A program made the translations under genes and the position numbers. DNA of 35,119 nt from Bilabrum cf. latius. Its lineage: Eukaryota. Numbering within the stretch: the first letter of the stretch is position 1; every line of letters begins with the position of its first letter. Below are positions 2,476-29,190 of this stretch, piece after piece. A model generated the notes under the pieces. The model had not been told where the DNA came from. It saw only the letters and a list, made by a program, of their open reading frames with translations, and made no database searches. The stretch covers positions 620,001 to 655,119 of the forward strand of contig OZ237769.1 of the NCBI GenBank assembly GCA_965178125.1. The letters run 5' to 3'.

Positions 2476-4120
2476 TCAATGCCTGCCGCCCTGGCCTTCA
2501 TTCCCTCGTTCCCCCTGCTCCGATCTTCGGTCGGCCCCGACTGCCTCGCCCACGCTCCCGAACCCGTCCTCCTTGAGCAGCCCTGCCAGCTCCCTCTTGA
2601 TCCTCCTCACCAGCGCGGGGCCGCAGTACCCCAGTGCAGTGTACACCTGCACCGCAGAGGCCCCCGCCCGGATCTTGGCATAGGCGTCCTGCCCCGACTC
2701 GATCCCGCCCACGCCCACCAGGGGAAGCCGCCCCTACAGCACGCGGCTCGCCTGCCGGAGAATCTCCAGCGAAGGTTCCTTCAGGGGTCTCCCGCTGAGA
2801 CCCCCCTTCTCCCCCCTGTGCGCCCCCTGCAGGGAGCTGGGCCTGGCCACCGTCGTGTTGGACACGATGAGCCCCTGCACGCCCGCGGCCACGGATGCCT
2901 CGCACACGTCAACCACCTCCTCGGGGCTCAGGTCAGGGGCCACTTTCACCAGCACCGGGCAGGGGCGTCTGTCGAGCGCCTGCCAGTCGATCGCGTCCCG
3001 CTCCTTGACCACGGCCTCCAGCAGGCCCTGCATGGTCTCTCGCCTCTGGAGGGCCCTCAGCCCGGGGGTGTTCGGGCTGCTGATATTGACGGTCAAATAG
3101 TCCGCGACGGGGGCCGCCGCCTGCACCCCAGCAATGTAGTCCGGCAGCGCCTCGGCTGTCTTGTTCTTGCCGATGTTGAGCCCCACCGCCCCTACCCTCG
3201 GCAGGCTCCTGGGCTGCTCCGCCCTCCGCCTCAAGAAGGCCTCCACCCGGGGAACAACCACAGAGAGACCCTCCGAGTTGAACCCGAATCGGTTGATTAC
3301 CGCACGGTCCTCCTCGAGTCTGAACATCCTCGGGCGGCTGTTCCCCGGCTGTTCCTTGGGAGTGACGGTCCCCACCTCCACGGCCCCCAGCCCGCACGCC
3401 AGCATGCCCTCCATCGCCTCTCCGTGCTTATCGAACCCGGCAGCCAGGCCCACGGGATTGCTCAGGTGCAGCCCCACCAGCTCAGTGGCCAGCACGGGGT
3501 CATCCTCCTCGTCTTCCCGAGGCCCCAGCCCCGCCGCCGCCAGCCGCAGGCCCCACCCGTGCGCGTCCTCTGCGTCGAGCCCCCTGAGCAGAGGCATGCC
3601 CACGTGTTCGGTGAGCCAGTGGTACTCGTCCGTGCAGCGGACATCTCTCACGCCGAAATGGTACAGCCCCAACAGCACGGCCGATGCTATCTGCGGGGGA
3701 TAAGACGGGGGGCGAGGCTGCTGGACAGCAAACAGTGGATGACTTGCAAGGTCAACCATGGTTACGATGCACCCCGCAGAGCCATTCAGGGGACACACAA
3801 TGAGCATCGCATAGTGCCCATCAAGCACCGGCGATACGGTTTGCACACAACCTCACGGCTGCCTACCGAAATAGCCCACTCCAAGTGAAGAAGCCTTCTG
3901 GGATGCTGCCTTCCCCACCGCCTGCACCTTCGGACCCTGCGCCAGATTTCTGTTCGCTTCCGCGGCCGTTATCCGCCCAAACTAATGGCGTTGAGAAAAT
4001 ACGTCTCCTGGGCACCACAATATGCTGCTATTTGGTCGCTCTAATCTATCGCACGCGGAATAAACTGCCTAGACCCTGTCGCACGGATCCTCTGCAGATG
4101 TTTGTGGCAATTCCCGCCAT
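2476..4120 (-). CDS. DHODH: Dihydroorotate dehydrogenase (quinone), class 2, mitochondrial, ~492 aa, 2 exons (4120-3857, 3690-2476), 4 in-frame TAG
   Basis: Motifs [107 protein letters not shown]. Exon 1 encodes an Arg-rich presequence. GTGAGG...CGCAG intron (3856-3691). TAG at 4046-4048, 4028-4030, 3863-3865 and 2734-2736. TGA stop. Confidence 0.96.
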
Positions 4121-4314
4121 TCTTTCAATTCAACCGCCAGTACCAGCGAGAGTAGTCACTATCAGTGAAAAGGCAAGTAGCAAATATCCGCGTATTGCGC
4201 TGACAACCTCAGTTTGGTGTTTGAAAAAGCTACACCGGAACTGTGAGGCAACGATGCCGAAACCTAGTGTTCCAAGTACTGAAGTGGTGATATGGTTTCA
4301 ATTAAATTGACATC

Positions 4315-5334
4315 ATGAGGAATACTCGTAGACTAGGTGCGGTATCGAAGCTGCTTGACGCCACCAGCCCACGGCGCGGAGTCTTATCTCGTAAGCATTG
4401 GGACTGGATGTGGAAGAGCGGTTTCATGGATTAGCAGCAGGCGATGCCCTCTGATCTCATCAGTACTGTCATTGAGCACTCTAAGCAGCACACGGGTTCC
4501 GGCGCCAGTAGGCTGGCCCTGGTCCCCATGTGCGGCACCTCCGCCGATGCTCTGCTGCTCGCCGAGGGTGGGATGGATGTGGTCGCCATCGAGGTTTCAG
4601 AGGAGGGGTGCGAGCGGGCCCGATCTAGCTGGTCCAAGCAATGGAAAGGAAGTAACTGGCAAGATCTCGGCGTGAGGATGGTCGACAAAGAGGCGCTGGA
4701 CGGTGGGCACGCCACCAGCACGGTGCACGCAGCTAGGCTGCAGGTAGCAGGGGCCGCCGACGATTCCGGTTCTATACTGCTGCTACAGGCAGACGTGTTT
4801 TAGGCTCTACCCCCTGCAGAATATGTCCAGGGGGGTGCTGGCGATATGCTCGCAGCACTGGCAGGCGGGCTTGGTTGCCTCTAGGGGCAAGCAGTGCACG
4901 GCGATGTACACGTGCACCTGCCCATGCCTCGTGCCTGCGCCTCTCTGGTGTGGGATCGAGGGGGTGTGACGAGTGTGGAGCCGTCGAGTCGCGAGGTGTA
5001 CCTGCGCACCTTGTTGGGGTGCCTGCAAGGGATACACCTGGGAGATGAACAAGATGGCAGCAGCTGTCCTGAGTTGGAGGGTGCTGCTGTCGGTGGTGCC
5101 CTGCTGGTGGAGGCGCTGCATCGGCCTGCCACTGGTGGGGGAGAGGACGGTGGGGATGGCTCCGAGTCGGAGGGTATGTCGGCAAGGAACTTGGTTGAGA
5201 TGGTGGAGAGCGCATCCCGATCGGTTGGACTGGATAGGGGTCGCTGGGAGACGGAGGTGCTGCTCGAGGGGGGCATGGAGGGGGTGCCAGGGGTGTCGCG
5301 GGCGCTAGTTAAGTGCTCGGTGAGGGCCGCCTGA
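4315..5334 (+). CDS. Thiopurine S-methyltransferase (TPMT)-like SAM-dependent methyltransferase, ~339 aa, 3 in-frame TAG
   Basis: One continuous frame if TAG is sense (4432, 4801, 4882): HWDWMWKSGF, ALVPMCGTSADALLLAEGGMDVVAIEVSE, QADVF, LVWDRGGVTSVEPSSREVY, matching TPMT-family motifs (VPLCGKS.D..LA..G..VVGVE.S; YDRAAL..LP...R..Y). TGA stop. Confidence 0.82.
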
Positions 5335-5520
5335 TCTCTGAGCGGTCAGTGTTGGTGCGACCCCCATGGACTCCAAACTTACAGACGGTAATTTGCGGGG
5401 CCAGGCAAGTCACAACAGAAACAATGGCCACAAACGCTGCAAAAACAAAAGTTGCTCGTCACACTGGCCACCGGAACGTCAGGTCCTTGGCCAGACGTTG
5501 ACATCTGGACATCATTTCCA

Positions 5521-8025
5521 ATGAGTGATAGGTAAGTGTATATGCCATACTTTATGGTGCGCTTCCGTAGCCTCGTTCCTGCGCCGGCACCCTCGCTATG
5601 CACGCCAAAGTATTCGTGACGGTTGGTTTGCTTGCCTTTGCAGCGAGGACGAATACGAGTATGAGAGCGAAGGCGATGATTTTGGCTCGCCTCAGCAGCC
5701 CTCACCACCAAAATCAAGGGTTGCAGCCACCAGTTAGCCTTCGTCGGCAGCCGGGGCGGCTGATTCCTCAACAGGTTTCGCTGTGCCTGCCTCTGCAAGC
5801 ACAGCGTCTGCCTCAAAAGGCGGTTCTGACGATGCAATTATCGGTTCGAAGCCCGCCCCAACTCCGTCTGTGCTGCCCAGCACCACGGCTAAGGAGAGCA
5901 CAAGCGCGGCGGCGGGCCTGCAACACGAGACAGCCGAGTACCGCATCGTTGAGCCGGGCGAGCTAGCTCAGGAGGTGACGCGCCGGGTAATAGCGCTACG
6001 GGATGTGCTTGAAATTCCCACAGACGTGTGTGAATCGCTACTAGTTGCAACTTCTTGGAGCCGGGAGCGCGTGATGGAGCGGTTTCTTGAGGACGGCGAC
6101 AAGCTGCTCGAGGAGCAAGGCGTGAGAGGCACCTGCTCGACTGCGTACCATCCAGAGTGACGCATTCGCACTGTGCTGTATTTAGTATTCGTGCCTACCT
6201 TTGAACGTTGAACAACTGCCGTTGGTGCCATGCACGCCGACGCTCCTCCCTGATTCCGTCCTTCCCGCACTCGCCACCTGTCCTCTCCTCGCAGCTGGCT
6301 GACGTGGCGAAGGTACCGGATGGCGAGTGCCCGGTGCGGACCCCCATTTCAATTGTGGGTGCAGACGCAGGCGCGGGCGGGTTCTGCGAGATCTGCTTCA
6401 ACGAGCTGCCTGCCTCCGAGGCGCTGGCCCTGCCTTGCAACCACGCATTCTGCGGGCAGTGCTGGCGGGCCTCTGTGGATGCGGCGCTGCAGCTCGGGGG
6501 CGAGCAGGCGCTGCGAGCCTCCTGTCCCAGCCACGGCTGTGTGCAGCGCGTGACGAGGAGGACGGTGTCGAAGGTGTGCAGCCCAAGCGACTCGCAGGAT
6601 GAGGCCGAGGCGGGGCTGTTCGAGGAGGAGGACGAGGAAGAGGAGTGGGACGGGTCTGGGCCCGGGGCGGAGGGAGCGAGAGCGAGGAGGAGGAGGCGGC
6701 GGGGCGGGCTGGCACAGTGGGCCCACCTGACGGAGCACTCCATGGTTGCAACCGCGCGCAACATGGCGTGGTGCCCCGCCCCCGGGTGCGAGCACGCCTT
6801 CGTGGCCAAAGGGGCGGGGCCCTCTGATGTCAAGTGCCCGTGCGGGACTAGGTTTTGCTTCCGGTGCGGGAAGGAGTCCCACTCGCCCGTCACCTGCGAC
6901 TCGCTTGCTGCCTGGCAGGCCAAGTGCGCTGACGAGAGCGAGACGGCCCACTGGATCGTGGCCAATACCAAGAGGTGCCCCAAGTGCTCGGTGCGCATCG
7001 AGAAGAACCAGGGCTGCAACCACATCATATGCAGGTCCTGCAAGCACGAGTTCTGCTGGGTCTGCGAGGGGGACTGGGCCTCGCACGGGCAGAGCACGGG
7101 AGGCTACTACGCATGCAACAAGTACGACCCATCCAAGGCGGGGGGCGGCAAGGACGGGGGCGCGGGGGGCGCTGACAGCGCCAAGGCGGAGCTGGACAGG
7201 TATCTGTTCTACTACCAGCGATTCGACAACCACGACAGGGCCAGGCGGTTCGCGGCCCGCCTGAGGGAGAGGACGTAGAGGAGGGTGCAGGCGCTGGCCG
7301 AGGCAGGGGGAGGCACGTGGAGCGATGCCACCTTCCTGGAGGAGGCCATCGAGGCGCTGCTGGAGTGCAGGCGGGTGCTCAAGTTCACGTATGTGCTGGG
7401 GTACTACATGCCCGGGGGCCACGAGAAGGTCCTGTTCGAGCACCTGCAGGAGCACCTGGAGAGGGCCACGGAGGAGCTGGCCGCGCTCACAGAACAGCCG
7501 GTGGAGAGGGTGGCGGACCAGCGGCAGGAGGTGGTCAACTACACGCGGGTCACGCAGCGGTTTCTGCGGCAACTGCTGGGGGGCATCGAGGAGGGACTCA
7601 CGGGGGGCGGAGCGGGGGCAGGGGCAGGGGCGGCACCTGGGGGGGCGGGAGAAGGGGTCAAACCTGCCGGTGGGGGTAAGAAGGATGCATCATACGACGG
7701 TGCAAACGGGGTACCACGCGGACGTGTTGGGGCACGGGCCTCTGCAGGTGGTGCAGGCGCAGGCCGAGGGGCCGGGGCTGGGGCTGGGCAGAGGTCTGGA
7801 TCGAAGGGGTCGGTGCGCAGTAGCGGGGGCAGGGTGGGGAGTAGTGGGTCCAGGACGGGAGCTGGAGGCAGTAGCGGCAAGAGACCGGGGGCAGGGACAG
7901 GGGCTCGCAGCGGGAGCCGAGGTGCGAGGGGGGGCGCTCCGTCCGGACTGGGTGGGGTGTCTGGGGCGGGGATTGCAGGGAGAGGCCGGAGTGGGGGTTA
8001 GTCCAGGCGTAGGAGAGGTAAGTGA
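5521..8025 (+). CDS. ARIH: Ariadne-family RBR E3 ubiquitin ligase (acidic N-terminus, UBA-like, RING1-IBR-RING2, Ariadne domain), ~739 aa, 3 exons (5521-5531, 5644-6121, 6295-8025), 3 in-frame TAG
   Basis: MSDSEDEYEYE; RING1 CEIC..CNHAFCGQC..CPSHGC; IBR WCPAPGC..CPCGTRFCFRCGKESHSPVTC; RING2 NTKRCPKCSVRIEKNQGCNHIICRSCKHEFCWVC; ELDRYLFYYQRFDNH; LLECRRVLKFTYV. Introns 5532-5643 (GTAAGT..CAG) and 6122-6294 (GTGAGA..CAG). TAG at 5735, 7276 and 7999. TGA at 8023-8025. Confidence 0.93.
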
Positions 8026-9182: not shown

Positions 9183-9894
9183 ATGCCTGGAAAAAGTAAA
9201 GGTTAGTGTCATCTATTGAGTGTCCCTATTTTTTTGTAATTAAATTGCCGAAGATCACTCTAACCACGTGATTTGGAAATGGCCATTCTGTTTCGCAGCG
9301 AAAGGAGGCAAGAAGAACAAGAGCAAGAAGAAGGTGACCGATGAGAAGAAAGAGCTAGTACTTATTGACAAAGAGGATCCCGATTCGCAGGTGTATGCCA
9401 AGGTTGTGAAGGTGCTGGGTGGTCTGCGGTTCGAAGGGCTTTGCTTCGACAAGGAGCGCAAGACACGATTGTTGCACGTCAGGGGCAAGTTGAGAAAGCG
9501 CCAGTGGATCAACCAGGGAGACTTTGTGCTGGTATCCTTGCGGAGCTACCAGGATGACCGCGCAGACGTGATCCACACGTACCAGGCTGACGAAGCTCGC
9601 CAGCTCAAGAAGCTCGGCGAGCTCCCGGCGGATGCAGTGGTGGGCGACGTGGAGGAGAAGAAGGATGGCGGCGGAGACGACGATGGAAAGATCGACGACG
9701 TGCTAGTGTTCACCGATGTATCCACTGCAGGGGCTGCCAAGGGCGGCGCGGCTGCCAGCGGGGGAGCGGCCAAGGGTGGCTCTGGGAAGGGAGCAGCCAA
9801 GGCCGCGGCTCCTGCGGGGCCCTCCAAGACAGCCATCCTCAGCGCAGCAGCCGCCGGCGATGACGATGGGGACATGGAGCTGGACATGCTCTAA
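9183..9894 (+). CDS. EIF1A: Eukaryotic translation initiation factor 1A, ~204 aa, 2 exons (9183-9201, 9299-9894)
   Basis: MPGKSKAKGGK, a GTTAGT..CGCAG intron (9202-9298), then YAKVVKVLG..RFEGLCFD..RLLHVRGKLRKRQWINQGDFVLVSLRSYQDDRADVI..Y.ADEARQLK..GELP. Acidic end DMELDML followed by TAA. Confidence 0.95.
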
Positions 9895-10167: not shown

Positions 10168-11226
10168 TCACTGCCCCTTGCGCTCCTCCTCCGTCATCTT
10201 CTGAAAGACGCACAGCTCCGAGCACCCCCACTGGAACTTGCGGGCGTGCTCCCGAATGAGGAAGGGCTCGTCCCCGCTGTGCACGAGCGAGAAGCCCAGC
10301 TCCTTCATGCGGGCCTTGAGACCCTCGCTGGAGCCACCGTCTCCGCGGGCGGCGGCAGCGTCGTCACTGCGGCCCCCCAGCCACTTGTCCCTGGGAGTGT
10401 ACTGCTCCAGCCACGAGTAGGGCGAGATGAAGACCACCACGCCCTCGGGGGCCACCAGGCTCGGGAGGGCCCGCAGGAGGGCGTCCGGCTCGGGCAGGCG
10501 GCAGAGCAGGTTCGCGCCGTGCACCACGTGGAATGGGCCTCCTAGCTTGTCTGCGTCCAGGCTGCAGGCGTCGCCCTGCTCGAAGCGGATGCGGTCGGGC
10601 TTGGCGGCCTCAGGGCGGGTGGCCTTGCCAGACCGCCAGACCTCGGCTTCCTGCAGATACCGGAATGGGAGCTCCCCGGCGGTCTGGAGCTTCTTCGCGG
10701 CATTGATGAATGCGTGCGAAAAGTCAATGCCAACCACCTCGTCGAAAGCCTCGCTGAGCTTGAACGAGGTTGCGCCCACGGCGCACCCGAGATCCAAGGC
10801 ACGCGTCTTGGCTGGCTTGCGCCCAAAGTGGGCCAGACGGCTCTCGGACCAATCAATGCACACCTATGCAGTGCGGACAGGGAAGTTCAGCGCGTGCTTC
10901 GGTCCCATGCTGTACGGTAGGAACTCCTTATCGGAACCGTAGTGAAAGAAGAGGTACTCATTCACCGCACCATCAGTCTCGTACACGTTTCCGTCATGAT
11001 CCGAAGACGTGGTAGACAGCTACTACTTCTTAGTTGCCTTCTCCGCGTCAGCTTTGGAGCCGCAGCATGATGCCTTGGAAGAAGAGGGTGAAGATCCCTT
11101 CTATGCCCGCAGCAGCAGCCAGCTCACACCGGCGCCCAACACAGCTCCCGCACAGCTCGCTGCAACCACATGGGTTGTGTTGATATTGCCCAGAGACAAT
11201 TTGTTGGATGATGATGCAGCAGCCAT
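10168..11226 (-). CDS. SAM-dependent methyltransferase resembling the OvoA C-terminal (mercaptohistidine N-methyltransferase) domain, with an N-terminal hydrophobic anchor, ~352 aa, 4 in-frame TAG
   Basis: Continuous frame from ATG 11226: NVYETDGAVNEYLFFHYG...NFPVRTA*VC...RALDLGCAVGATSFKLS..FDEVVGIDFSHAFI..A...FEQGDAC.L...ANLLCRLP.P...SPYSWLEQYTPRDKWLGG...PFLIREHARKFQ. TAG at 11101, 11023, 11020 and 10864. TGA stop. Confidence 0.88.
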
Positions 11227-11438: not shown

Positions 11439-14400
11439 TCAGCTCCCGGCGCCCCATGGGGAGGCCATGGGCCCAGTCCCAGCCCCAGTCCCAGCCCCAG
11501 TCGCCCCAGCCGCCACAGGCCCATCCGAGAACTTGGACCCCGCCACCTCCCTGTGCCTCGCCCCGTCCGCTCGCTCCCTCGCCCGCCGAAGCCGAAACAA
11601 ACCCTCGTCCACGTGCTTTAGTCGATCAGACGCCAGCATCTCCATCACCTCCCCCTGTGCGGCAGGAGGCACAGCCCCAGGGGGCAGCAGCTGCCCCAGC
11701 GCGGCCTGCACCCACTCCCGCGCGACCCCTCCCCCCAGCTGCCTCAGCTTCCTCACCATCGCGGAGACACTGCCCGTCCTGCCGTCGATCACACGAGAAG
11801 TCATCGTCACCAGGGCAGCCTCCAGACCAGCACGCACCAGCGCAGCCCCGGCCCTGCGGATCTCGGACGACGCCCTGCCCATCGCTGCCCCCTGCACCGC
11901 ACCTGAGCTCGCACCTGTGCCTGCGCTAGCGCCAGTTTGCTGCTGCCTGCCTGCCGCTAAACATGCATCGCCCAGCATCGATACGGCCCTGCACGCCTGC
12001 ATCGCCACGTCCAGATTCACCGCGGGCAGCGCCCGAACCGCGAGTTCCAGGGCGCGGGGCAGCCCCGGCCAGGAGGATACCACAGGCCCGCACAGCGAGG
12101 CCGCGGTGCCCAGCAGCTGCAGGCCGCGGTACACGAAATCCGCTTGTTCCCTGGCCCGCTGCTGCACGGCCGCTCCATCGACGGGTCCCGTGCCCAGGAC
12201 CCTGTCCACCACGGCACCCACGGCCTCCAGCGCCATCATCTCGCAGGCCCCTCGAGTCGGAGGGGGCACGTGCTCGGGCCTGGCCTTGTGGCAGCAAGTG
12301 GCCAGCAGGCTCTGCACCAACTCCAGCAGTACCTGGTCCTGACCATGACCAAAGATGAACGGGAGGGCCGGCCGCAGGTGCTGCACCAGCCCCAGGGAAC
12401 AAGGCCGCTGCACTTGCACGATGGTCCTTGCGGCTTCCAGCCAGGCACCCACCGCGTCCACCTGCCCTATCCTCCTCCTCAGCGCCTGCATGAGCAGGGG
12501 CCACAGCTGGTCCAGCACCCTCTTCACCACCCGCATGCTGCCTGCATCGGGAGCGGGCCACTGGGAGTCCCGGCCCGTCCATCCACCCATCGCATACGGC
12601 CTGCCGCGGCGGGCAGGCAGCTGCAGCCCCTCGAGCTCCACGAGAGGAGCTGCACCGGACCGCTGGGCTTCGGCGCGGGCCAGTGCACTCGTCACAGCAG
12701 CGGCTTCTTCCCTGGCCCTGGCTGCATCCGCGCGCACCGCCGGCACCTCGAGAGCGAGGGGGGAGTAGAAGCAGGCATCGAGGTCCTGCAGCGCCAACAG
12801 GACGGGCTAAGGGTCGGAGAGTGGCCCCTGCGACTTGGCGTCTGCCGCCAGGCGGTCTACCGCGGGCTTGAGGACGGCCTTGAGCCGGCCCTCTGCCTGG
12901 GACTCGTCGGTGGACGCGAGGGCGGCGGGGGCCAGGCGGTGGAAGCAGTTGTCTCGGATGGTGGGACGGGCCGACAGGGCAAGAGCCACCATCTGGCCCT
13001 GCAGGTCCGGGGGCAGCGCATGGGAGGCGTCCCGCAGGAAATAGCCGAGGGCGTTGCCAGCCTGCACGCTGAACGAGGGGTGCGGGCGCTGCACGGCCAT
13101 GCGCAGCAGCCCCGCGCACTTGGGCAGCACCGAGGGGACTCGCACCATGTGTTCCCTGTACACGGTCACCAGCCTGCACATGGTGGCCACGCACTCGGGC
13201 TCCCGCGGGTACTGGTCCAGACCCTGCAGCACGCTCCTGACCAGAGGTGCCATGGAGAAAGGCACCTCTCTGTGGATCCCTCGGAGCGCGTACAGGGCCG
13301 CCTCGACCCCCCGCCAGGTGCCAACCAGTCGCGCGGGCCCTGCGGCAGAGGGCTTCCCTCGCCTGCCGCTGCCCTTGGTCTCCCTGTACGCCCTCATCTG
13401 CCCCTGCAGCTGCTGCAGCAGCATGGTGGCCACCTATCTGGTCCCGCACAGCCTGCATGCGTCCCCCAGCAGCCCGCACACCGCATACCTCCACTCCAGC
13501 AAAAAGGCGTCCTGCCTGTCCTTTGGCATGTCCTCGTACCCCTCAGGCACTTCGATCGCGCCCAGCACCGCCGCGGCCAGCTCCGTGTAGGCCCGCTGCA
13601 CCAGCCCATGCACCGCCTCCGTGGTCCGCCTCACCACGATGGGCCTGTCCTCGTCCCCACTGCTGCTGCCTCCCTCCTCCTTGCCCTCCCTGAGCTCCCC
13701 TTCCTCCTCCCCCTTGTCCTGATCGTCCCCGTGCTCCTCCTCCGAGTCATCCCCGTCCCCGCCACCACCGGCGATCGACCTCGGCCCCAGCACCACCCTA
13801 GAGACCTCGGCCCACGCAGACAGCGTCAGCTCGGCCACCTCGTGGTCCCTGCTGCCAGTGCACCTCACCAGGGCCTGCAGCAGACCCCCGTACAGCGCAC
13901 CGTGCGGCCGCAGCAACACCCTCGCGCTGCAGTTCGCCGCCCAGCTGACCACCTCCACCATGCGTGCCGCGCCCACATCGTCCCCCGCCTCCTGGCACGC
14001 GACCCCGACCCCCGCGCACTCGCTCGCCTCCCGACACACCAGCCGGAGGAGCCCCTCGGGCCCCCGGGTGTCCCCCGGGTCTGGCACAGCACCTGCACCT
14101 GCACCTACACCTGCACTGGCCCCGGCCCCGGCCCCGCCTGCTCCCCGAGCCTGCCCCACACTGCTGCTGCTCTTAGTCGTCATCCCCTAGGCTCGGGGTA
14201 CCGTCTGCCGCAGGTGCACGATTGCCTCGTCCGAGACCCGCTGGATGGCCGCGTGAGCTGCCTTGAAGGCCGACTGCAGCACCCCGTCCATGGCCGAGAG
14301 ACGGACCAGTCCGGGGGGAGGGGCCTGCCCGCCCGGGGCGGTGGCCCTTGCCCTCAGGAGCTGGAATGCCCTCTGCACCAGTCGAGAGGGAGGCGCGATT

Positions 14401-15164
14401 TCCCTGGCCCCCATGGCCTTGTAGTCCAGCCACTCGGCCATGCAGTCCATCGCGGCGCACACCGCCCCCGGCCTGCCCTTAGACCCCGCCATGACTGCGT
14501 CCAGCAGGGCTGCCACCTTGGGCCGGGCGGCGATGAGCTCATCCTGTAGCGCGGCATACCTGCCCCTGCCGATGGCCTTCTTGCGGTGGGCTAGCTCCCG
14601 GGCGCGGGGCATCTCCGAGAGGACCGAGAGCAGTACGGGCTGGCCGGCGGGGGGCAGCCCGGAGGCAGGACCACCCGACCCACTGGCTGCATTGCACTTT
14701 GTGGTAATCGCAGAGCGAATCGAGTCCACCACGCCGGTCCAGTCTGTCCATTGACACGCCAGCGACGCCAGAGCGACAGCTGCCGGTCGCTGCACGGACT
14801 AGAGTCCCGTGCCACCACGCGCGGTAGTGCACCTCAGCAGCACCTCCAGCAGCATGTCTCTCAGATTTGGCCAGAATTTCTTGTTCAGTCTTGCCAAGTC
14901 CTCGATTACTTTGTCCTCCAGGGTTTTGGCCGCCCATTGCAGTTCCGGCTCGTTGGGTGCATGATTCATATCGAGCTTCAGCAGATTGATTGCGGACATC
15001 CAACCGGCATCGCACCGCCTGACGTCTGCAATGTATTCCGTGGCTCGCTCCCTTTCGTCTTTCGGGGCAAGGCCGGCTGCCACAGCATGAAGGGCACCGC
15101 GAACTTTGGCCTCGTTGAACGGTGGGCCCAGAAATGTCAGCCCCTCTGGTAGCAATGAGGCCAT
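11439..15164 (-). CDS. TNPO3: Importin-beta family karyopherin, transportin-3/Mtr10/importin-13-like, ~1,241 aa, apparently intronless, 4 in-frame TAG
   Basis: Five same-frame ORF fragments separated only by TAG (14799, 14187, 13434, 12807) and ending in TGA (11439). IBN_N-like ERATEYIADVRRCDAGW..A..LL...ELQWAAKTLEDKVIEDL; AVALASLACQWTDW; LSVLSEMP; WRGVEAALYALRGI. Subfamily is inferred. Confidence 0.78.
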
Positions 15165-15352
15165 GACCACCACCTATGCACACGCTATTTGAACTTAAGC
15201 GTAACTATGCGCAGCCTGTAGTTTGCTGGGTTTCTAATGCATGCAGCATGGTGGTGTTGATGGCCGCACTGCACTCATCACTGCGCCACTGGCAGCAAGG
15301 ACACGGTGGGATCCGTGTGCCTCGCAGAGGTAGTAGGGCAGATAAAACCGGC

Positions 15353-18249: not shown

Positions 18250-19493
18250 GCGCTGGCATCCAGATATATGTTCCATGTTGGCGGCCATATGTCGCACGTG
18301 TGAAGCTAAGACTACCAGAAATGTGCTATCTGTATCCTAGACGTCTATTTAGTTTTTCAACTGCGATCTCATATTTAGATATCCGATCTCATGTTTGAAA
18401 GTACACCTTACCCCTCAGAGTTGCTCGTGATGATCCGGATAGCGCAAACTAGTCTCCCAATCAATCAGACATGGCAAGTCCTTGACAAAGCTTTGCAGGA
18501 TGGCGCTGCTCTAGGCCTGTTTATCCAGGTCCGAGCTGAGCCACTGCACCACTCAGCCGAGGAGGAGGGGGAACTGGGAGGGTGGGAAAACGAGTTAACC
18601 CAAACTCCGTCCCTCTCCTGAACACAGAGAGAGCTGCAACACATAAATCCGGTGCGCGTCGATCACGGTTGCGACCGGCCCTATACCGTAACAAACGGGG
18701 AGACATGGCAACCTGCGCTCCCATTATCGCATCAAACCCGAACCCCATCCGGCGTAAGGTATAACAAATTATTCTGGTAGACTATTATTCTGGTATTCCA
18801 CAAAATATCAGATCCCCCCCTCACTTTTGGTCCCCGGAAAGGGGAGGGTCCTGAACACTGTGAACAGTCCGGGGGTCCGTAGACCAGGCCTGCCGACTCG
18901 TGCAGCGACCAAGATTCGCTCCGGCCAAATATCGTCCATTCCTACCGGGGATTTGGTAATTTGCAGCCAGTAGCGGTATAGGTGAGGCCAACTAGTGCCC
19001 CAAGTGCTGGTTCTGGCCCGATGTCTGCCTCTAGTTTTCGAGAGGCACCGAACCGCCCCTTCACATTGTACAAGCACATACTTTCGTAAGCTAAGCTACA
19101 GTTCAAAAATGGAAATTGTAGCCAGGTTTCGTCCCCTTGCTAAGGTAGCTACATGTACCCGTACCCATACTGACCAATACAGCTGAGTCCTGGCAGAGGG
19201 GACCCGCATGTCGTGCTTCCTACCTTTTTCATGCATTTTCTGCTCCTCTATCGCAGATAAATAGTCGACAATAGGTAGCTTTTTTTGTCAAACTCCATGA
19301 TTTTGCTGGTAAGTCAATCTGTAGCCCAACAATATTTTCCACAAACGACAAAACGTGTTTTCCACCCACTGCCAGTGGCAGCGTGGATGGCCCTCCGAGG
19401 AGTCCCTTCCCCGTCGCCAGAGCGGATTCAAAGAGCAGGTGCACTGGGGCTGGGATTAGGGGTGCGGGGCAAGTATGGTATCATAGCCGGGTC

Positions 19494-22400
19494 ATGCACT
19501 CCTATTTCTCCCGACTTTTATCAGCCAGTCTCCCCTCACAGCAGCCAGTCCTGCTCCTGCTGCAGTTCCTCTGGAGCATAGCCCAGCCAGCCCCGAATGA
19601 GGCCCGCCAGGTCATGCAGACTGACGCACTTGATCCAGATGGGATTAACCACCTTAACATGGGGCAACAGGGTAGCCATCGCGACCGAAGGCTCAACCTG
19701 GCAGATGATGGGTACGTAACTTTGAGCTCCGGGGCGAACGGGATGCCAGCCCTGCCCGCGAGCACAGCGTTCGGAACGTGCATCGCAAACCTGGGAAACC
19801 TCGACAACGATACAAACGGGCTTCCGGAGGTTTTTGTGGGAGCCAGAAAAGGTGCCAGTGCCAGCAACATCGGGACGAGCTTCATTGTGTCGCTCACAGC
19901 GACGGGCACGGTGGCTTGGACCAAAGAGGTCGGGTAGGCCAACCTGGCGGATGGGTCAGGTGAGCGGTTCGGGGAGGACTGCATCTCTCTAGGACGGATG
20001 ACGGTCGATTCAAATCGCACCACTGTGGCAATTACTACGCTGGAAAAATTCAGGTTATGGCTGATCAACCTGAGACCGAACGGTGAGGTGGCTAGCTACT
20101 AGGTCATCTCGACGACGACGGGACTTGAGCCTGGCGTGACCTTCAACCAGTAGATTCGAAGTGTAGCCGCCCCCGGTGATGTTGATGGAAACGGAGTGCA
20201 GGATCTGCTGGTCAACGAGTGGGACTTGGGAGGTTCCAACTACAGGACGTCTCTCCTTTTCCTAACCGTAAGGGGCACTGTTCGGGAGGTCTTCGAGCTC
20301 TCGATACCGAACGCTGATGACGGTAGATTTCGGACCTTGAGAGTAGCCCCCATGGACCCATGGACGTCTAGCAGCATCACCATAGCCACTTCAGATTACC
20401 GCGAGGGGTTCCCAAGGGGAGTTCGGATCTTCGAGATGGAAAGGAACTCAACCACGCCTGCCTTCACTCTGGTAGGATCCGTACTTACGACGTCGGACAA
20501 CTTCTGCTGCTCGACGCTGCTCTCGAGATCATTTGCATTTTTAGCAATATGGATACCAGAGTAAGACGTATATTGACAGCAGGGCCTGCTGTGGATGTAT
20601 AGCGGTTGCTCAATCACGTGATCCATTGCTACTGCTTTGACCCTGCCACGCTTCCCGCGCCTCCCCCCGCAGCCAAGACGCCGACTCCAACCCCGAGCTG
20701 GTGATCACAGACTTTAGATACAACAATGACAGAGGGAGGGCATACTTGGTGTACCTGAATGCCACCTACGGGATAAAGGGCATGGTGCCTTTTGGTCCGG
20801 GGCAGGATTACATGCAAGTATCATCCAGCCCTGCCAAGTATTTCGGCACGGCGGTCGACTTTATCGGCAATCTTGGTAATGGTGGCAAGCCAACACTCAT
20901 GGTAGGCAGCAATTATGGCTTAGCAGGGGCTTCTGGCCGAAAAGGCAATGCATGGGTCCAGACGATGCCCGAGGGGGTCGCCGTGGTCACCTCATCCCAC
21001 CGCATCGCAAGCAACTAGGGCGGCATTGGCTCGGTCTCGGGCAGCAAGTTCGGTACTGCCGTCTGTGCCATCGGAGACCTGAATCGGGACGGGATCAATG
21101 ACATGGCCATCGGGCAGGCCTCTGGTGCCTTGCCCACCAGAGGCAATGTGCGGATCGCCTTCATGGACGCTGACGGGACGGTGGGCTCTGTGCAGACCAT
21201 CTCCAGCACCAACGGCATGGGAAATAGTATAACACGTCAATTTGGAATCTACATGGCATTCCTCAATAGACAGACAGGGTCATCCTACGATACCCTAATA
21301 GTTTCAGATGACTTTGACAGCAACGATGGCTACGAGCGTGGGGCGCTGTGGATCCTGGAGCTAACGACGACAGGCTCTGTGCAGTCCAAGCAGCGCATCG
21401 GGGACAACGAAGGTCTCAATGGACAAGGAAGACTTGGTCTGTAGAGCCGTGACCATTTTGGCCGCTCAGTGGCCGTGGTGGGCGACATCGATTCCGATGG
21501 GCGAGTAGAGATCGCAGTTGGGGCCGAGCACTTAGTATCTGCCGGTTCGGGCACCTTGTTCATCATGTCACTCTTCCAGAATCACACGGTGGCCTAGTGG
21601 AGCAAAGTATCTGCCACAGAGGGGGGATACTAGCCATCACCCTTCGATACCAGGATGTACCAGAGCCTTGCAGCAATCGCAGACTTGGACCAAGACGGAG
21701 TGCCAGACGTAGCTACCGGCACCAACTTCGTATCTGACTGCGGAAGCAGATGCGGGGCCGTCATTGTCTTTTTCCTTCATTCGAACGGCACCGTCAAGGA
21801 CCAGCAGCGGATCTCACATAACACAGGCGGTCTTGGGTCTGTCCTTGCGGCGGGCGACAACTTCGGCCGCGGGCTCTACTCGCCCGGTGACTGGAACGGC
21901 GATGAGATTCCAGACCTGCTGGTGGGCAGCTACAAAGATCCTGACGGGGGCAGCGCGCGAGGTGCATTCTACCTTATGTACATGAATCGCGATGGCACGG
22001 TCAAGTCGTCGGTCAAGTTCTCAGACACCAAAGGGCAGCTGGATGTAGACATCAAAGCTGGAGACAACTTTGGCTACTCGTTCATGCTGCTGTCATCGAG
22101 CATAGGCAACAACCATAGGATTGCTGTGGGTCCATCTACTGACTCTGGCTACGTGGAGGTGATTGATATCTTCTCAGCCGCATCCCTGGCATCTCCATCT
22201 CCGTCGCCTACCCCATCTGTGACTCCCTCGACCTCCAGCAGTCCCACGCCAAGCATTACGTCTAGTGTCACCAGCAGTCCCAGCAGCTCGCCCACGCCGA
22301 GCATTACGTCTAGTGTCACACCGAGCCCTTCCAACAGCCCAACGCCCTCAAATAGCCCCACGCCCAGTGTAACGCCCAGTGTAACGCCGACCGCGACCCC

Positions 22401-25400
22401 GTCCATCACCCCAACTACGACACCCAGCACCACACCAGGACCCGTCGCCTCCACGGCCCTGTGGGCAGCAGCCAGCCAAGAAGCGTCGCTGCCTCACTCC
22501 AACGGCCCTGCTTTGGTGCTGCAGGGCACAGGGCCGCTGGTGCAGCTGGCGCGGGTGACGGGATACTCTGGCGCTGCGGTGGATCTACTGGCGGGCGTGG
22601 AGTTGCTGGTGGGACCGTACAGCTGTGTTGGGGTGCAGGCCATCCCGTCAGACACGTAGGGCAGTCAGCTGCGGTCAGATGAAGACTTCTCCATCAAGTG
22701 CCCCAGCCTGCCAGAGGGGGCAGGCGGGCCGCACCCGGTCACCCTCAAGCACGTGCTGGGCAGCATCGATGTGGTACAGGAGGAAGGCTCATCGACCCCG
22801 CTGTTGCTGTCGTATGACCCCCCCAGCATCGCGGACGTGACGCCTCGTGCCATAGAGCTGACGGCCATTGCCAACTTGACCTTTGCCATCACGGGGGAGG
22901 GTTTCGGGCCCACTCCTGGCATGCTGGACTCTGTGTGGGTGGGTGGTGAGAGGTGCTACCGGGCTACGTGGGTGTCTTCCACCGAGGTGCGATGCGACGC
23001 TGTGAGAGCCGATCGATTCAGCACCAATGGCGTGGTGGTGCGAGTGCTGGCCACTGCAGCCGGCGCCGAGCCTGGATACATGGCTAGCATCAACGGGGAG
23101 CAGCGCATCACTTACCCGGACCCGCCCCGCCCTGTGGGAGCCTCCCCACAGGACATCCCGTGTCTGGGCCGGTCTAACGTGACAATCTTCGGCATCAACA
23201 TCGGACTTGAATCTGGATCGAATGCCGTGGTGCGAGCCACGATCGGCTCCCAGCCTGCCCCTCGCTTCCTCCGCGAGACGGATTTCTCCCTGCAGATAGA
23301 CGTGCCCCCGGGGGTGGGTAGAGACCAGAAGGTGGGTGTGGTGACCGCATCAGGCATCCAGGGCCAGTCGCTTCAGGGCATCCTGCAGTACGAGCCGCCC
23401 GAAGTGCAGGGCATCAGCACCTCTCCCGCCACCGTGTACTCAGCCCTGGATGAGCCATACAACGTGACCATTAGGGGTAGGAACTTCGGCCCCAGGGAGG
23501 TGGTGGCCATCCGCACCGCCACGGTGGGCGGCAACCGGTGCCCCCAGGTGCTGTCCGTCTCGGACAGCGAAATTCTGTGCGTGGGGGTAGAGGCGCCGTG
23601 GTCGGACAATGCAGTGCTGGTGGACGTGCAGGGGCAGACGGGCTTTGATCTGTCAGTGTTCGAGTACTAGCCCCCCGCCGTGGTATCCGGGCTCCAGCCG
23701 GCGAATGGCCCCACAGTGGGAGGCACTGTGGTCACCATCACCGGTAACGGACTGGGGTAGGTGGCTACCATGGATGTCGAGGCCGTATTCATCGGTGACA
23801 GAAGATGCACAGACATTTCGATCCCGGCGGCTCACGTGGGGTAGTAGATCGTGTGCAAGACACCCAGGGGAACGGGGGAGGGCAACGAGGTACTGGTGGT
23901 CACAACACGCAATGGCAATAGCACGTTCCAGGGGGAGAGCCGGGTCTCGTTTGACTACGATACTCCCAGCGTCAATGGCATCAGGGCGTGCCAGGGGCAG
24001 TGCGGGTCAATCGCACTGCGCGGACAGCAATCTCCTTGGAGCTAGACGGTGATTTATGCGGGCAACTTGAGTGCGAGTGCAAGGGCCACCGTGGATAACG
24101 CGGGGAACCACGATGGCCTGCTGACGGGAGCCAGGCTGGTGCACGCCACGGGCGGGGCGGCGCAGTGGTCGGTGGACTGCAGCCAGGTAGCGACGGAGCG
24201 TGCTGGCTCAAGCGAGCAGGACCAGATCGAGGCCGTGCAGTGCCAGGTGCCCAGGGTGCCAACGACGGGCGTGGCCAATGGCGAGTCCGCCGAGATCACG
24301 CTGGAGTTTGCCGTCGACGGACAGACCAGCACGGCAACCGGGACTGTATCGGCGCTGACAGTCGTGGGCGCCCCTCGAGTCGACAGCATCCAGCCAGCGG
24401 ATGCGCCTGCCACGGGGGGGAACGCCGTCCATCAGCTGACAATCCAGGGAGCCTCCAGCGCAATTGCGGCCCGGCTTCACGCTTCCTTGCTACAGCAGAC
24501 ATCGAGCACCCAAGTCATCGCGCGTCCGACCTGGCTGCTCTAGGACGGGTCTGTCAATAAAACCGCCCTGTTGCTCGCTGATGCATCCGCAGTGGTGCCA
24601 ACGGCCTTCTTGTTGGCGCCGGGAGCACCCGAACTGGACGACTGGGCGGACCTAGGCCTTGCCCAGGTGCGCGGGGCAGAGCTGGGCAGGTCCGCAGTAG
24701 GGCTGCTGCGTGCTACCGTCGGAGGCCGCCCGTGCCCTCTGGTTGCGTGGAGCACTCAGGAGGAGCTCTTCGTGGCCGTGCCCCCGGGGGTAGGAGCTGC
24801 GGCCAAGGTGCTGGTCCTAACGGCAGGAGGCCTCTCGAATCAAGACCAGGCCACCCCTGTGACGGTGAGCTACTCACCCCCTCAGGTCTTAGGGGTGTCC
24901 CCTCTAGTCGCATTGATGCCCCCCGACTGGGATGCAGGGGCTTCGGTGGACGTGCAGGTAGAGCTGACAGGTCTGGACCACGTGGCTGGACGGTCCAGCT
25001 CCGGTCCAGCCGTCTCGATCCAGCTATCGGACAGCACTGCAGGTCTGAACGCAGAATGCATTGCGCTGCAGCGTCTGGCAGACCAGGCCACCGGAACGCA
25101 GCGACTTTCGTGCCAGTTGCCCCTGCAGCCCTTTGATCCCGACTTAGCCCCCCTCCGAGACCTGGCTGTGCAGGTGCAGGTGGCAGACCAGAGCGTCACC
25201 ACGCAGGTGGGAGTACTCACGCTCGTGGGGCGGCCGATCGTCACGGGAATTCAGCCCAATGTGGCCAGAACGGCGGGCGAGGGGAATGCCACGCAGGCGC
25301 CCGTGACGCTGGAGGGGCAAGGCTTCGGCACACTGCCTGGGCACGTCGGCGGGGTTAAGGTGGGCGGGGTGCCGTGCCCGTTGGTGCAGTGGGTCAGCTC

Positions 25401-28400
25401 TAGCAGGCTGCTGGTGGCGGTGCCTCCAGGTGTGGGAGGCGGAGTACCCGTGGTGGTGCAACTGCAGGCGGGCCTGACCTCCCAGCCGGGCCCCAACAGC
25501 GAGCTGTAGTACGAGCTGCCGGACGTCAGGGCCATCGAGCCCAGCTACCTGTTCCTGGCACCCGTCGAGGGCAACTTCACCGTGACGGGGCAGCACTTTG
25601 GGCACTCGCAGCAGAACTTAGACTACATTGAGGTGGGTGGCGTGCGGTGCCAGCGATCTGTGTGGGTGGATGGAGCCACGGTGAGGTGTGTCGGGCTGGA
25701 TGGCAGTCGGCTGGATCCGGCGTCGTTAGACAGCCGCCGGGTGCTGGTGCGCACATAGGGGCAGACCAGCATTGCCAACGCTCTATTCGAGCCGGTGCCT
25801 CCTCCAATCGTGCAGGAGGTGGCGCCGGCCCAGGCGGCCGCGGGCTCAAACGTTGTGATCCTTGGCCGTAACTTTGGCTACGTCGCATCCGACCTGCTGC
25901 GTGTCACGGTGGATGGCGTGCCGTGTGCCAGCTAGCAGTTCCGGTCCAGCTCCGTTGTGACCTGCCGACTGCCTGAGCCCAGGGCGTGGCGAGTGGAAGC
26001 GTCCAGCCAGGGCAACACCACGGTACTCGTTGGCCTGTCCGTGCGCGTGTCCACTCTCGGGGGTCAGCGGTCAGATTAGGCCACATCAGCCGTGGTATCG
26101 TATCCCAGCGTGGGCGCAGTGCTGCCCTACGTCCCTACTGAAGTCTTGGGCTGGAGGGAGCGAGGAAGGCCGGATACGCTGATCGTGAGATGGGTGTATC
26201 CCCGGGAGGAGTGGGCGCTGCAGGGCATGACGGAGCCCAGCGAGTACCACGTAGAGGTGTTCTCTGTGGCACAACCGGAGCTTGGAGGTAAGCAGTAGCG
26301 GTTCCGTGTGGCCGAGATCGAGAGTCGCAGGGAGGACGAAGACACGGTGGTCATGCGGCACACACTGCAGATCACCGAAGCGGGGCCCGTGCGCGTGCGA
26401 GTACGCGCAACTAGTTCTGCGGGCGATGCACCATGGTCGGAGTCGACCGGCGCCATCCCGCCCAGCTGCCTGGGGACCGAGTTTCTGGCCACCCATCTAG
26501 ACATAGGAAGGTGGACGTGCCTACCATGCGCTTCGGAAGCCAACCGATGCAGCGGAGGGCCAGCGCAGGTAGTGGAGCCGGCTACAGGGTACCAGCGCAT
26601 AGGATGGAGCGCCGGGCGACTGTCGTTTGCGGCATGTCCCAACCCCGACAGTTGCATCGTCGTTGAGGCCAACAACGGAAGTGGCCAAGCTGGAGGCATC
26701 GAAGGCACAGGACAGGCACGGAGGGTGCAAGGAGTCGCTGCTGATGATGACGGGATCCTCCGAGCAAACAGCCAGGTGGCTCCGGCTGGGTCTGCCCCTG
26801 GCTGGGTGCGGGAGGGACTGGTGGACGCCATCCGACAGGTGTGGCCCATGGGGAGCGACAGCCGAGGAGTTAGCCTGGCCCTCGCATCCAGCTCTGGGGC
26901 ATCAATCGACAAGCTGCTGGAGGAGGCCACGTTGGACGGAAGCTATGCCTCGTGCGCGGAAGGCTACAGCGGGACCATGTGCCAGAGATGCGTGCCGGGC
27001 TACACCCGCTGGGGGGTGCACGGCTGTGCCAAGTGCAGGACAGGCGCCGTGGTGGTCCTGGTCTTCATCGTCGTCTTTCTGCTGACCATCGCACTCGTGT
27101 CCTACCTCGTCATCAACGCCCTTCGCAAGAGCTCGCACCAGCTAATGATGCGGATCGAGAGGATAACCGCGGTCTAGGAGAAGAATCCTGATGATGATAC
27201 AATGGCATCAAGGGGCTTGGACATGTATGCAGCTGGGCAGCAAGGTAGTAGCAAACACGAGGGCCAGGGAGCACGGGAGGCTGCATGCAACCCCCCTGCC
27301 ACCCCGATATCCTCCTCCACCGCCCGGCTTAATGGAACAGAAGTGACGACAAGTCCGGCAGGCATGGCACAATCTATGCCTCCTGCAGACCCTGTGGGGC
27401 CCAAGTTCCGGGTTGCTATCCTCAAGATCATTTTTTCCCACGTTTAGATCGTGGCTATCGCTTCCAGCTTTGACCTGCGATGGCCTGCCTCCCTGATGGA
27501 GTACTTCAATACGCTCAACACTGCCACGTCGGTGGCCAGCGACGTCCTCAGCCTCGATTGCTTCCTGCAAGACGAGACGGTGTCACTCGGAATCGGGTTA
27601 GACGGTGGTGGCACCGGCAATGCAAGCGGCGTCTTGGCTGCATCCAGGGCCAGTAGCGGGGTCTCGGGGGCGACAGATCTGGGTGGCCCGTGGCCGCACA
27701 TTGACGAGGCCGGGGTGGCTGCCTTGACTGCCTCGCAGACCGAGCGCCACGCCTCTCTCATCTCCATGACCATGCCCGATGGAGGCCTGGCTGCCATCAT
27801 GCCCAGTGGGTCATCGTTCCTGGCCAAGTCAGTTGTGGTGCTGCTCTTGCCGCTCCTGCTGGTGGGGTTCGTCGCTCTATTTTGGCTGGCGCTCGAGGTG
27901 TCTGACGGGTGTCTCTTCGAGGAAGAACCCGATGGTGAATAGGAGGGGCAAACAGACAAGCCGGAACAATAGGCCCATATGACCAGCGAATCCCAGGCGA
28001 CTGTCACGGTATAGGGCCCCGCCTTTACGGTGCAGGTGCACACGGGCACGTCTCGCGCCGCCGCACCTGGCACCCCAACCCCCACGCAAGGCGCCCGCCT
28101 CGTCATCCAGGCTGCTACCGAGAGTGATGGCAGAGGCAGTTCCATGGACAAAACGATGCACACAGGCAAGCCTCAGCCCAGGATGAGCAGGCGACGTTCG
28201 TCCTTCGCTGGAGTAGTGCCGCTAGCGGGGGAGGCCAGGAGCGGTAGTCTGCTGACCAAGATGGGCGTGGATCTGAGCGTGGCTCGGGCGACGTACTGTG
28301 ACAAGCTGCTGGTGACCCTGGTGGTGCTAGCCTTTCTCATCCACCTCAATGTCACGCAGACCAGCCTGCAGATGCTCACGTGCCACGATATTAAGCCCTC

Positions 28401-29190
28401 GGTGGATCTGGACGGAGGGCTATAGGCTATCGCAGCCAACAGCACCGGTGCGCCACTTGAGGACCACGGGAACCTGACCGATGTTGCCTTGGGTCTGCCT
28501 CCAGGCTGTCCTGTCGACCATCCCAGTCGCCGGCTGTACCATGATCTAGACGTGTGCTGCCACGACCCCGCCGCTCTCGTAGTCATGTACGGGATCGGCA
28601 TCCCGGCCACCATGCTGTATGCCTTCGGCATCCCTATCTTCGCCGGTGTTTTGCTGTACCGTGCCAGGAACAAGCTGGACGACACCCGGGTGGTGGCCAC
28701 GCTGGGCTTCCTGCAAGAGGGATACAGGCGGGACCACTTTTACTGGGAGGTGGCCATCATGGCCCGGAAGCTCATCGTCGTCTGCATCGCCGTTTTTCTC
28801 GAACCGTGGGGGGCGGCTGTTCAGACATATGTGGCGATGACGAACGTATTTGTATTCGCAACGCTGCATGCATTTAACCAGCCGTTCAAAGACCGGGATT
28901 TAAATCTTCTGGAACTCCTCGCCCTAATGAGTGCCTTTCTGACGTTCGTGTGCGGGCTGTTCTTGTTCGACCCAGTGACTGGGGACGGTGTGCGGGTGCT
29001 GGCCACGATGGTGGTAGTGCTGCTGAACACGACCGTGATCGCTGTGGCTATAGGGGTGCTGCTCCTGCCATTTGCTGCACCCTACTTCCTTTCGTGGTGT
29101 GGTTGCGGGCGGCTCGATAGGGAGGGCTCGATCGCCAAGGCGAGGGTTGGTGGGACGGAACAGAGGCGCCTGCCGATCCGAGAAGATTGA
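19494..29190 (+). CDS. Giant cell-surface protein: signal-like N-terminus, FG-GAP (integrin-alpha-like) repeats, Ser/Thr/Pro stalk, many IPT/TIG domains, FN3-like and Cys-rich segments, multi-pass TM C-terminus; ~3,194 aa, 2 exons (19494-20560, 20673-29190), 25 in-frame TAG
   Basis: FG-GAP motifs (FGTAVCAIGDLNRDGINDMAIG, FGRSVAVVGDIDSDGRVEIAVGA, FGRGLYSPGDWNGDEIPDLLVG); IPT motifs (P.V..I.P......GG..VTITG.NFG); CAEGYSGTMCQRCVPGY; TM region with LGFLQEGYRRDHFYWE and PF....LNLLE. One phase-2 intron, GTAAGA...CGCAG (20561-20672). All other breaks are TAG; terminal TGA. The start codon is inferred. Confidence 0.88.
22189..22443 (+). repeat. Coding low-complexity mucin-like (SPTPS/TPSVT) repeat within the giant surface protein
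   Basis: ASPSPSPTPSVTPSTSSSPTPSITSSVTSSPSSSPTPSITSSVTPSPSNSPTPSNSPTPSVTPSVTPTATPSITPTTTPSTTPGP, with DNA-level duplication of agcattacgtctagtgtcac. Confidence 0.9.

Follow-up and report, generated by a model that had tools for sequence, protein, structure and literature searches.

The question raised by a 35,119-nt stretch of contig OZ237769.1 (assembly GCA_965178125.1, deposited as Bilabrum cf. latius; positions 620,001 to 655,119), referred to here as the window, is how the TAG triplets that interrupt its genes in frame are read. A preliminary description of this DNA had proposed that UAG is a sense codon, most likely for glutamine (Gln, Q), and that UAA and UGA remain stops. The analysis reported here indicates that the nuclear code very probably uses UAG as a sense codon for Gln, UGA as the main terminator and UAA as a rarer one, an arrangement identical to NCBI translation table 15. 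In-frame TAG codons are also present in a related species, represented by a metagenome contig termed L001.

In-frame TAG codons and terminators

Twelve genes of the window were considered; eight carry TAG in the coding sequence (CDS) and four do not. With the eight genes taken as single open reading frames (ORFs), 40 TAG were counted after the start codons. Introns were taken from GT..AG joints seen in RNA-like contigs of public sequencing runs and exon boundaries were then fixed; the splice joints give Ariadne two 5' exons, DHODH one 5' exon and the gene for a giant membrane protein its upstream exons. The spliced models thereby add 7 TAG located in 5' exons that are absent from the ORF lists (three in DHODH, one in Ariadne and three in the giant gene). 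In total, the eight spliced models hold 47 TAG, no TAA and no TGA in frame over 7288 codons, with no frameshifts. The TAG are distributed as 4 in DHODH, 3 in a TPMT-like gene, 3 in Ariadne, 4 in a methyltransferase gene, 4 in an ORF of 1241 amino acids (aa), 1 in Prp18, 3 in a CCDC103-like gene and 25 in the giant gene. The earlier count of 47 TAG in eight of 12 genes was thus matched gene by gene, and its statement that neither in-frame TAA or TGA nor frameshifts occur holds over the codons of the eight models. The tally of terminators was also the same over the 12 genes, 11 TGA and one TAA (that of eIF1A), and all eight TAG-bearing models terminate in TGA. Since the two other frames of the same CDSs contain 54 TAA and 223 TGA (and 109 TAG), the absence of TAA and TGA in frame reflects selection and not composition.

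The two tandem TAG-TAG pairs noticed previously are real. One is found on the minus strand at 11020..11025 (aa 68-69 of the methyltransferase) and the other on the plus strand at 23842..23847 (aa 1401-1402 of the giant protein), where a close relative has Q-Q. Divided by fifths of CDS length, the positions of the TAG codons number 15, 7, 10, 8 and 7, and the base following TAG is A in 9 cases, C in 10, G in 22 and T in 6. TAG accounts for about 14% of the Gln codons in these genes. The tally consists of 46 secure TAG and one ambiguous TAG, at 7999. Programmed stop-codon readthrough, which is rare and gene-specific and as a rule affects a single site per gene, the natural stop, was rejected as an explanation, given 47 sites spread over eight of 12 genes, as many as 25 in one gene, and the two tandem pairs.

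That UGA remains a stop is supported by 11 of the 12 terminators and by both of those in L001 (2/2 TGA). The claim that UAA remains a stop is borne out on thinner evidence, one terminator and the lack of TAA in frame: under synonymy of TAA with TAG, and with CAA/CAG at 50/236, about 10 TAA should have occurred in frame, and none was observed (P = 5e-5). A code in which both UAA and UAG (UAR) specify Gln, of the table 6 type, was rejected on this basis (0 TAA against 47 TAG, P ~5e-5 under synonymy) and from the TAA that ends eIF1A.

Contigs of four public sequencing runs (X1, X5, X6 and X7) were compared with the window over positions 2400-22150. Run X1 gave the best DNA match, and X5 to X7 belong to two studies other than that of X1, making three studies in all. 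The DNA contigs of X1 span all 29 TAG sites of this interval with 0 differences. The RNA-like contig pieces listed for X5, X6 and X7 span 24 of the 29 sites, also with 0 differences, and 11 of these 24 sit in contigs that skip GT..AG introns as well; the sites outside the listed RNA-like pieces are 4432, 7276, 7999, 14189 and 14801. Other letters at the TAG sites, or TAG codons spliced out of the message, had been named in the preliminary description as findings that would speak against it; neither was seen in the DNA and spliced RNA-like contigs over this interval. Homology runs on past TAG in DHODH, in the Ariadne domain, in the TIG repeats and in the C-terminal membrane region of the giant protein, which comes after 20 TAG. 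In-frame UAG therefore sits in conserved, expressed protein genes, and the proposal that it is a sense codon agrees both with the continuation of domains and homology beyond TAG and with the presence of these codons in spliced RNA-like contigs.

The amino acid specified by UAG

The most informative TAG is located at 27445..27447 on the plus strand and corresponds to aa 2602 of the giant protein, in the motif S-H-V-x-I-V. The C-terminal part of this protein has 5139 relatives at E<=1e-3, and the TAG falls in a near-invariant Gln column: of the 124 homologue stretches aligned there, 118 have Q (121 of 127 with a shorter query). Glu was not found in the 124-member column, and the relative P0241 has Q at this position. 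Most other TAG sites, including most of those in the giant protein, fall in columns of the distant homologues that are variable or unalignable. The alignments at DHODH sites 25, 31, 86 and 407, Ariadne sites 35 and 732 and methyltransferase site 121 were uninformative, as was TPMT site 40, for which the PDB alignment is weak and has no gaps; a comparison by eye of the internal repeats of the giant protein was also uninformative for the meaning of TAG.

Closer relatives cover more of the sites. Four ORF fragments (P0393, P0394, P0391 and P0395) lie on one 6904-nt contig and are collinear with the giant protein over aa 1180-3179, at 84-89% identity. Of the 9 window TAG sites that these fragments cover, 6 have Q, among them each of the two tandem codons, and the other three have D, P and S; the binomial probability of at least 6 Q among 9 at a Q background of 3.9% is 3e-7. 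At ordinary CAG/CAA sites, the same fragments have Q in 53 of 61 cases.

A metagenome scan with the giant protein as query found no relative, and a scan with P0002 as query led to L001, a contig of 5807 nt with a GC content of 0.55. Its gene order, Ariadne-TPMT-DHODH, is syntenic with the window at ~69% overall identity; the TPMT-like orthologue is 35% identical and the position of the DHODH intron is common to both. L001 has in-frame TAG codons of its own. One of them falls in a DHODH column that has Q in 118 of 120 homologues and E in 1 of 120, and at which the window has CAG. A second L001 TAG also aligns with a window CAG and, reciprocally, TAG 3865 of the window aligns with a CAG of L001. 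The other nine pairings of TAG sites between the window and L001 give G, G, D, E, P, R and S, N, A. When the close relatives are pooled (P0001, P0241, P0391/393/395 and L001), the residues at TAG sites are Q in 8 of 20, D in 4, G in 2, P in 2, R in 2, E in 1 and S in 1; the 8 of 20 for Q stands against the 3.9% background, and no Leu, Tyr, Lys or Trp was found at TAG sites in these relatives. Judged from the alignments, TAG sites appear to behave like somewhat less-conserved Gln sites. Gln is by far the best reading of UAG and is well supported at the sequence level by the near-invariant Q columns, the exchanges of TAG and CAG with L001 and the Q that the close relative has at 6 of 9 sites, in line with the amino acid originally put forward.

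Gene calls made with the standard code for P0001, P0002, P0121 and P0391-P0395 have their starts or ends at positions that are TAG, or probably so, in the relatives. P0002 stops one residue short of a TAG of L001, P0121 ends at Ariadne residue 583 and P0393 ends right before window TAG 24043. Because the gene calls of the relatives break at TAG positions, standard-code annotation fragments the proteins of this lineage in databases. A second further species, represented by the sister contig on which the orthologue of the giant protein is broken into ORF fragments, probably shares the trait.

A number of points weigh against reading UAG as a Gln codon that never terminates. Ariadne residue 491 is E in 73, Q in 15 and D in 15 of 120 homologues and alone would favour Glu; DHODH residue 407 is G in 36, A in 20, E in 19 and Q in 12; opposite methyltransferase residue 121, three PDB chains have K, K and T; and P0001, a DHODH 97% identical to that of the window, has D at site 2736. 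L001 has Q at 1 of 7 window TAG sites, compared with 17 of 42 for ordinary Gln codons, and a tRNA gene search of the window and L001 found none. The contig comparison takes in 29 of the 47 TAG, with 18 sites of the giant gene lying beyond 22150; none of the listed runs is registered as RNA, and the RNA status of X5 to X7 is a guess backed by splice joints and by poly(A) ends at 2430. The statement that TAG never terminates derives from zero of 12 genes, and that UAA is a stop from the single terminator of eIF1A together with its in-frame absence. It is very unlikely, given all the sites, that UAG is a sense codon for a residue other than Gln (Glu, Leu, Ser, Lys or Tyr) or is read by a mix of near-cognate tRNAs with no dedicated tRNA. 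Ariadne 491, the K, K and T at methyltransferase 121 and a window TAG that aligns to GAG in L001 speak for such a code, but Glu is absent from the column at 27445 and occurs once in 120 in the DHODH column of the L001 TAG, and the close relatives have Q eight times for a single E and never Leu, Tyr, Lys or Trp.

An ambiguous or context-dependent code, in which UAG specifies Gln inside genes but terminates some of them near the 3' end of the mRNA, is unlikely. TAG 7999 lies 7 codons ahead of the Ariadne TGA, in a tail free of homology, and could be a real terminator, and the sample of terminators is limited to 12. Nevertheless, TAG is needed as a stop by none of the 12 gene models of the window and by neither of the two complete 3' ends in L001, and TAG codons are spread along the CDSs. 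The ambiguous code of Amoebophrya sp. ex K. veneficum (Amoebophrya Kv) has, in the accessible text of PMC12005148, in-frame stops that are 58% UAA, 32% UAG and 9.7% UGA, a pattern unlike that of the window. We consider it extremely improbable that the TAG codons are untranslated, be it as assembly errors, as codons edited or spliced out of the RNA or as marks of decaying subtelomeric pseudogenes. The location is indeed subtelomeric, and X1, the best DNA match, may be the same sample as the window; against this, contigs of three studies, spliced ones included, have identical letters, the 7288 codons are free of in-frame TAA, TGA and frameshifts, and orthologues in two relatives are conserved across TAG sites, with the TAG of L001 at different positions.

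Under the preferred reading of UAG as Gln, since one mRNA carries 25 TAG, tandem pairs occur and any base may follow, decoding of UAG would be efficient and dedicated. By analogy with other lineages (accessible parts of PMC11687900 and PMC5304391), it would be carried out by a cognate tRNA-Gln with a CUA anticodon, which by wobble rules is not expected to read UAA, and eRF1 would have lost or weakened its recognition of UAG whilst that of UAA and UGA was kept. That a tRNA with a CUA anticodon does not read UAA, letting UAG evolve alone, is argued in the part of PMC11687900 available to us. TAG codons may then arise from CAG by C>T after the reassignment, and the location of TAG at less constrained Gln sites fits this route. 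The gene for eRF1 is not among the genes of the window, in which a search for tRNA genes and Rfam families found neither.

Genes and intergenic elements of the window

The GC content of the window is 0.51-0.70 per 2 kb, and GC at third codon positions (GC3) is 0.74. Pfam searches were run with TAG translated as Q. The names Vps26-like, thioredoxin-like, HIG1-like and eIF1A are putative and come from reading the translations. A Vps26-like C-terminal exon (7..897, minus strand), known from its ORF and translation, is free of TAG and ends in TGA; the thioredoxin-like and HIG1-like genes likewise have TGA as stop and no TAG in the CDS. A class-2 (quinone) dihydroorotate dehydrogenase (DHODH) of 492 aa is encoded on the minus strand at 2476..4120 (Pfam PF01180, E 1.2e-82) by exons 3857-4120 and 2476-3690, separated by an intron at 3691-3856, with the stop TGA at 2476-2478. 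Its TAG sites are 4048, 4030, 3865 and 2736, and a spliced X5 contig spans all four with 0 differences. The transcripts of the thioredoxin-like gene (plus strand) and of DHODH (minus strand) converge and appear to end no more than ~3 bp apart: X5 and X7 have poly(A) after 2430, and the first position of the DHODH contig is 2428.

The TPMT-like methyltransferase (339 aa; 4315..5334, plus strand) matches Pfam PF05724 (E 2.4e-10) and PDB entry 2bzg (E 2e-4), has TAG at 4432, 4801 and 4882, and ends in TGA. It is followed on the same strand by an Ariadne-type RBR E3 ligase of 739 aa (5521..8025) with Pfam IBR and Ariadne matches. The model comprises exons 5521-5531, 5644-6121 and 6295-8025, with splice joints 5529>5642 and 6121>6295 in RNA-like contigs, TAG at 5735, 7276 and 7999, and the stop TGA at 8023-8025. 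At the GC-rich low-complexity stretches 6621-6645, 7611-7631 and 7768-7789, which correspond to an acidic insert and a tail of Gly, Arg and Ser, the contigs of each of the four runs are broken or diverge, as would fit sequences that are repeated elsewhere or variable in length. The eIF1A main exon (9299..9894, plus strand) follows an intron at 9202-9298, with the joint 9199>9297 seen in X5 and X7; its CDS is free of TAG and ends in TAA at 9892-9894. Not included in the coding count are in-frame TAG triplets at 8102, 8180-8185, 9162 and 15176, upstream of the likely starts of three genes (HIG1-like, eIF1A and the 1241-aa ORF).

The methyltransferase gene with four TAG encodes a stand-alone OvoM/OvsM-like thiohistidine/selenohistidine N-methyltransferase (352 aa; 10168..11226, minus strand). 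It matches PDB entries 9bxh (E 9e-43) and 8khq (E 4.5e-40), as well as 9bxl, and also Pfam methyltransferase families. Its TAG sites are 11103, 11025, 11022 and 10866, all four spanned by RNA-like contigs of X5, X6 and X7 with 0 differences, and its stop is TGA. Three of the four TAG lie in a hydrophobic N-terminal extension of ~75 aa on this enzyme of the ovothiol/ovoselenol N-methylation type. An OvoA-like synthase is not among the genes of the window. The 1241-aa ORF (11439..15164, minus strand) is an open frame when TAG is taken as sense and ends in TGA. Its TAG sites are 14801, 14189, 13436 and 12809, two of which lie within an X5 contig spanning 11559-13964. It has no Pfam family at E<=0.01, and the label of transportin given to it in the preliminary description was not confirmed.

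The splicing factor Prp18 (476 aa; 15176..16606, plus strand; Pfam PF02840, E 8.3e-27; stop TGA) has a single TAG at 15707, and its PF02840 domain is downstream of this codon. On the same strand, a CCDC103-like dynein attachment factor (467 aa; 16846..18249; Pfam PF15867, E 5.9e-10) has TAG at 16864, 17245 and 17455 and ends in TGA. An X5 contig is continuous over 15269-18293, that is over Prp18, the 240-bp spacer and the CCDC103-like gene; this unbroken contig could reflect overlapping untranslated regions, read-through transcription or DNA in the library. Between the CCDC103-like and giant genes, an intergenic element at 18392-18884 is multi-copy, with the summed depth of X1 contigs rising from ~15 to 240. 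The only listed letter differences between contigs and window (18479-18726) fall within this repeated element, where many loose contig ends are found too. The giant membrane protein (3182 aa; 19297..29190, plus strand; Pfam TIG, E 4.6e-43, and FG-GAP) consists of FG-GAP repeats, a Pro/Ser/Thr linker, TIG/IPT repeats and a multi-pass C-terminal region. Its gene, with 25 TAG, is made of exons 19297-19308, 19542-20560 and 20673-29190, with joints 19307>19541 and 20560>20673 in RNA-like contigs and the stop TGA at 29188-29190.

Position of the organism and relation to known codes

Beyond the giant gene, four TTAGGG arrays are found at 30571-30961, 31586-32329, 33007-33738 and 34416-34697, with ~65, 124, 122 and 47 units, respectively. 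The last two are each preceded by four copies of a 155-bp tandem unit, so that a block made of four such units and an array occurs twice (32389-33738 and 33798-34697), followed by 420 bp of AT-rich unique sequence. Rather than a single terminal array, the region is a nested subtelomere or else results from a join in the assembly. A 55-bp tandem repeat of 2.8 copies (29870-30037) abuts a short GGGTTAGGGTTAGGG stretch ~530 bp before the first long array.

In a FastTree analysis, the Ariadne gene lies beside a clade holding an entry labelled 'Symbiodinium sp. KB8' (support 95), within a group of stramenopile sequences and far from Blepharisma. The best named match of DHODH is from the 'Symbiodinium sp. 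KB8' assembly (55% identity) and, for both genes, the nearest named homologues are from stramenopiles, Paulinella and 'Symbiodinium sp. KB8' at 44-55% identity (stramenopile, rhizarian and dinoflagellate labels); one gene tree and database labels do not suffice to place the organism. Ciliate telomere repeats are typically of the TTGGGG or TTTTGGGG type. The TTAGGG arrays, the long multi-gene chromosome end and the distance of Ariadne from Blepharisma speak against a ciliate, and the quinone-type DHODH, the HIG1-like gene and the use of TGA and not TAA as main stop against an Iotanema-like organism. The earlier remark that this is not a typical ciliate or fornicate is reasonable in the light of the arrays, these two genes and the Ariadne tree. 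A trypanosomatid such as Blastocrithidia was ruled out by genes on both strands, cis-spliced introns and the TGA stop, and Amoebophrya Kv by its different in-frame stop pattern, mostly UAA in the accessible text of PMC12005148.

The UAG=Gln-only code is itself already known, table 15 being named the 'Blepharisma' code. Among the UAG-only cases given in the accessible parts of PMC5304391 and PMC11687900, one fornicate and some ciliates use Gln, one rhizarian and some ciliates use Leu, and one green alga, Scotinosphaera, uses Ser. The fornicate, Iotanema spirale (Metamonada), is described in PMC5304391, as far as its text was available, as an anaerobe with UAA and UGA as stops and UAA as primary terminator. 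It shares with the window a reassignment to Gln that is confined to UAG and lies outside the ciliates; unlike the window, it is an anaerobe with UAA as main stop, whereas the window has a quinone-type DHODH, a HIG1-like gene, a GC3 of 0.74 and TGA in 11 of 12 genes. Ciliates with UAG-only reassignment include Protocruzia tuzeti and phyllopharyngean lineages (PMC11687900, in part). They resemble the window in reading UAG as Gln and keeping UAA as a stop; the window differs from them by its TTAGGG repeats, by a long chromosome end with many genes and by the distance of its Ariadne gene from that of Blepharisma. Rhizaria sp. exLh (UAG=Leu) and Scotinosphaera (UAG=Ser) (PMC5304391 and PMC11687900, in part) share with the window the decoupling of UAG from UAA in a non-ciliate nuclear genome, but the amino acid differs, as Leu is never found and Ser is found once in 20 at TAG sites in the close relatives.

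Ambiguous stops are reported for all three codons in Condylostoma and for UAA in Blastocrithidia, in which UAG stands for Glu. An ambiguous-stop code is described for Amoebophrya Kv as well (PMC12005148, in part). The window has in common with these three organisms the presence of in-frame stops, in its case in about two-thirds of the genes (8 of 12); in contrast, the window involves one stop codon only, and no gene needs it as terminator. UAR=Gln codes (table 6) are listed for many ciliates, hexamitid diplomonads, some ulvophytes, Streblomastix and Amoeboaphelidium in the accessible part of PMC11687900; they too read a stop codon as Gln, whereas the window has no in-frame TAA.

Because of the TTAGGG telomeres, the genes of an aerobic mitochondrion and an Ariadne gene placed away from the ciliate, the window fits none of the known UAG=Gln lineages. 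A literature search found no GC-rich non-ciliate with UAG=Gln besides Iotanema, subscription journals and supplements being outside its reach; the sequencing runs date from 2025. We see about an even chance that the window represents an independent and so far unreported origin of a UAG=Gln-only code, in a GC-rich lineage of aerobic flagellates that belongs to the stramenopiles, alveolates and Rhizaria (SAR) or lies close to them, with the trait shared by L001 and TGA as near-exclusive terminator.

Nuclear UAG-only reassignment is known from a handful of lineages, and new independent cases test whether the decoding of UAG and UAA can be separated and by which route the change proceeds, through the tRNA first, through eRF1 first or through loss of the codon. 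With the standard code, annotation truncates or splits about two-thirds of the genes in this genome or in its relatives. It is unusual for TAG to be lost as a terminator against a background of high GC and of TGA as main stop. If the proposed origin is true, the reassignment of UAG would have taken place at high GC, a composition at which TAG stops should be frequent, and this would be awkward for codon-disappearance models relying on AT pressure.

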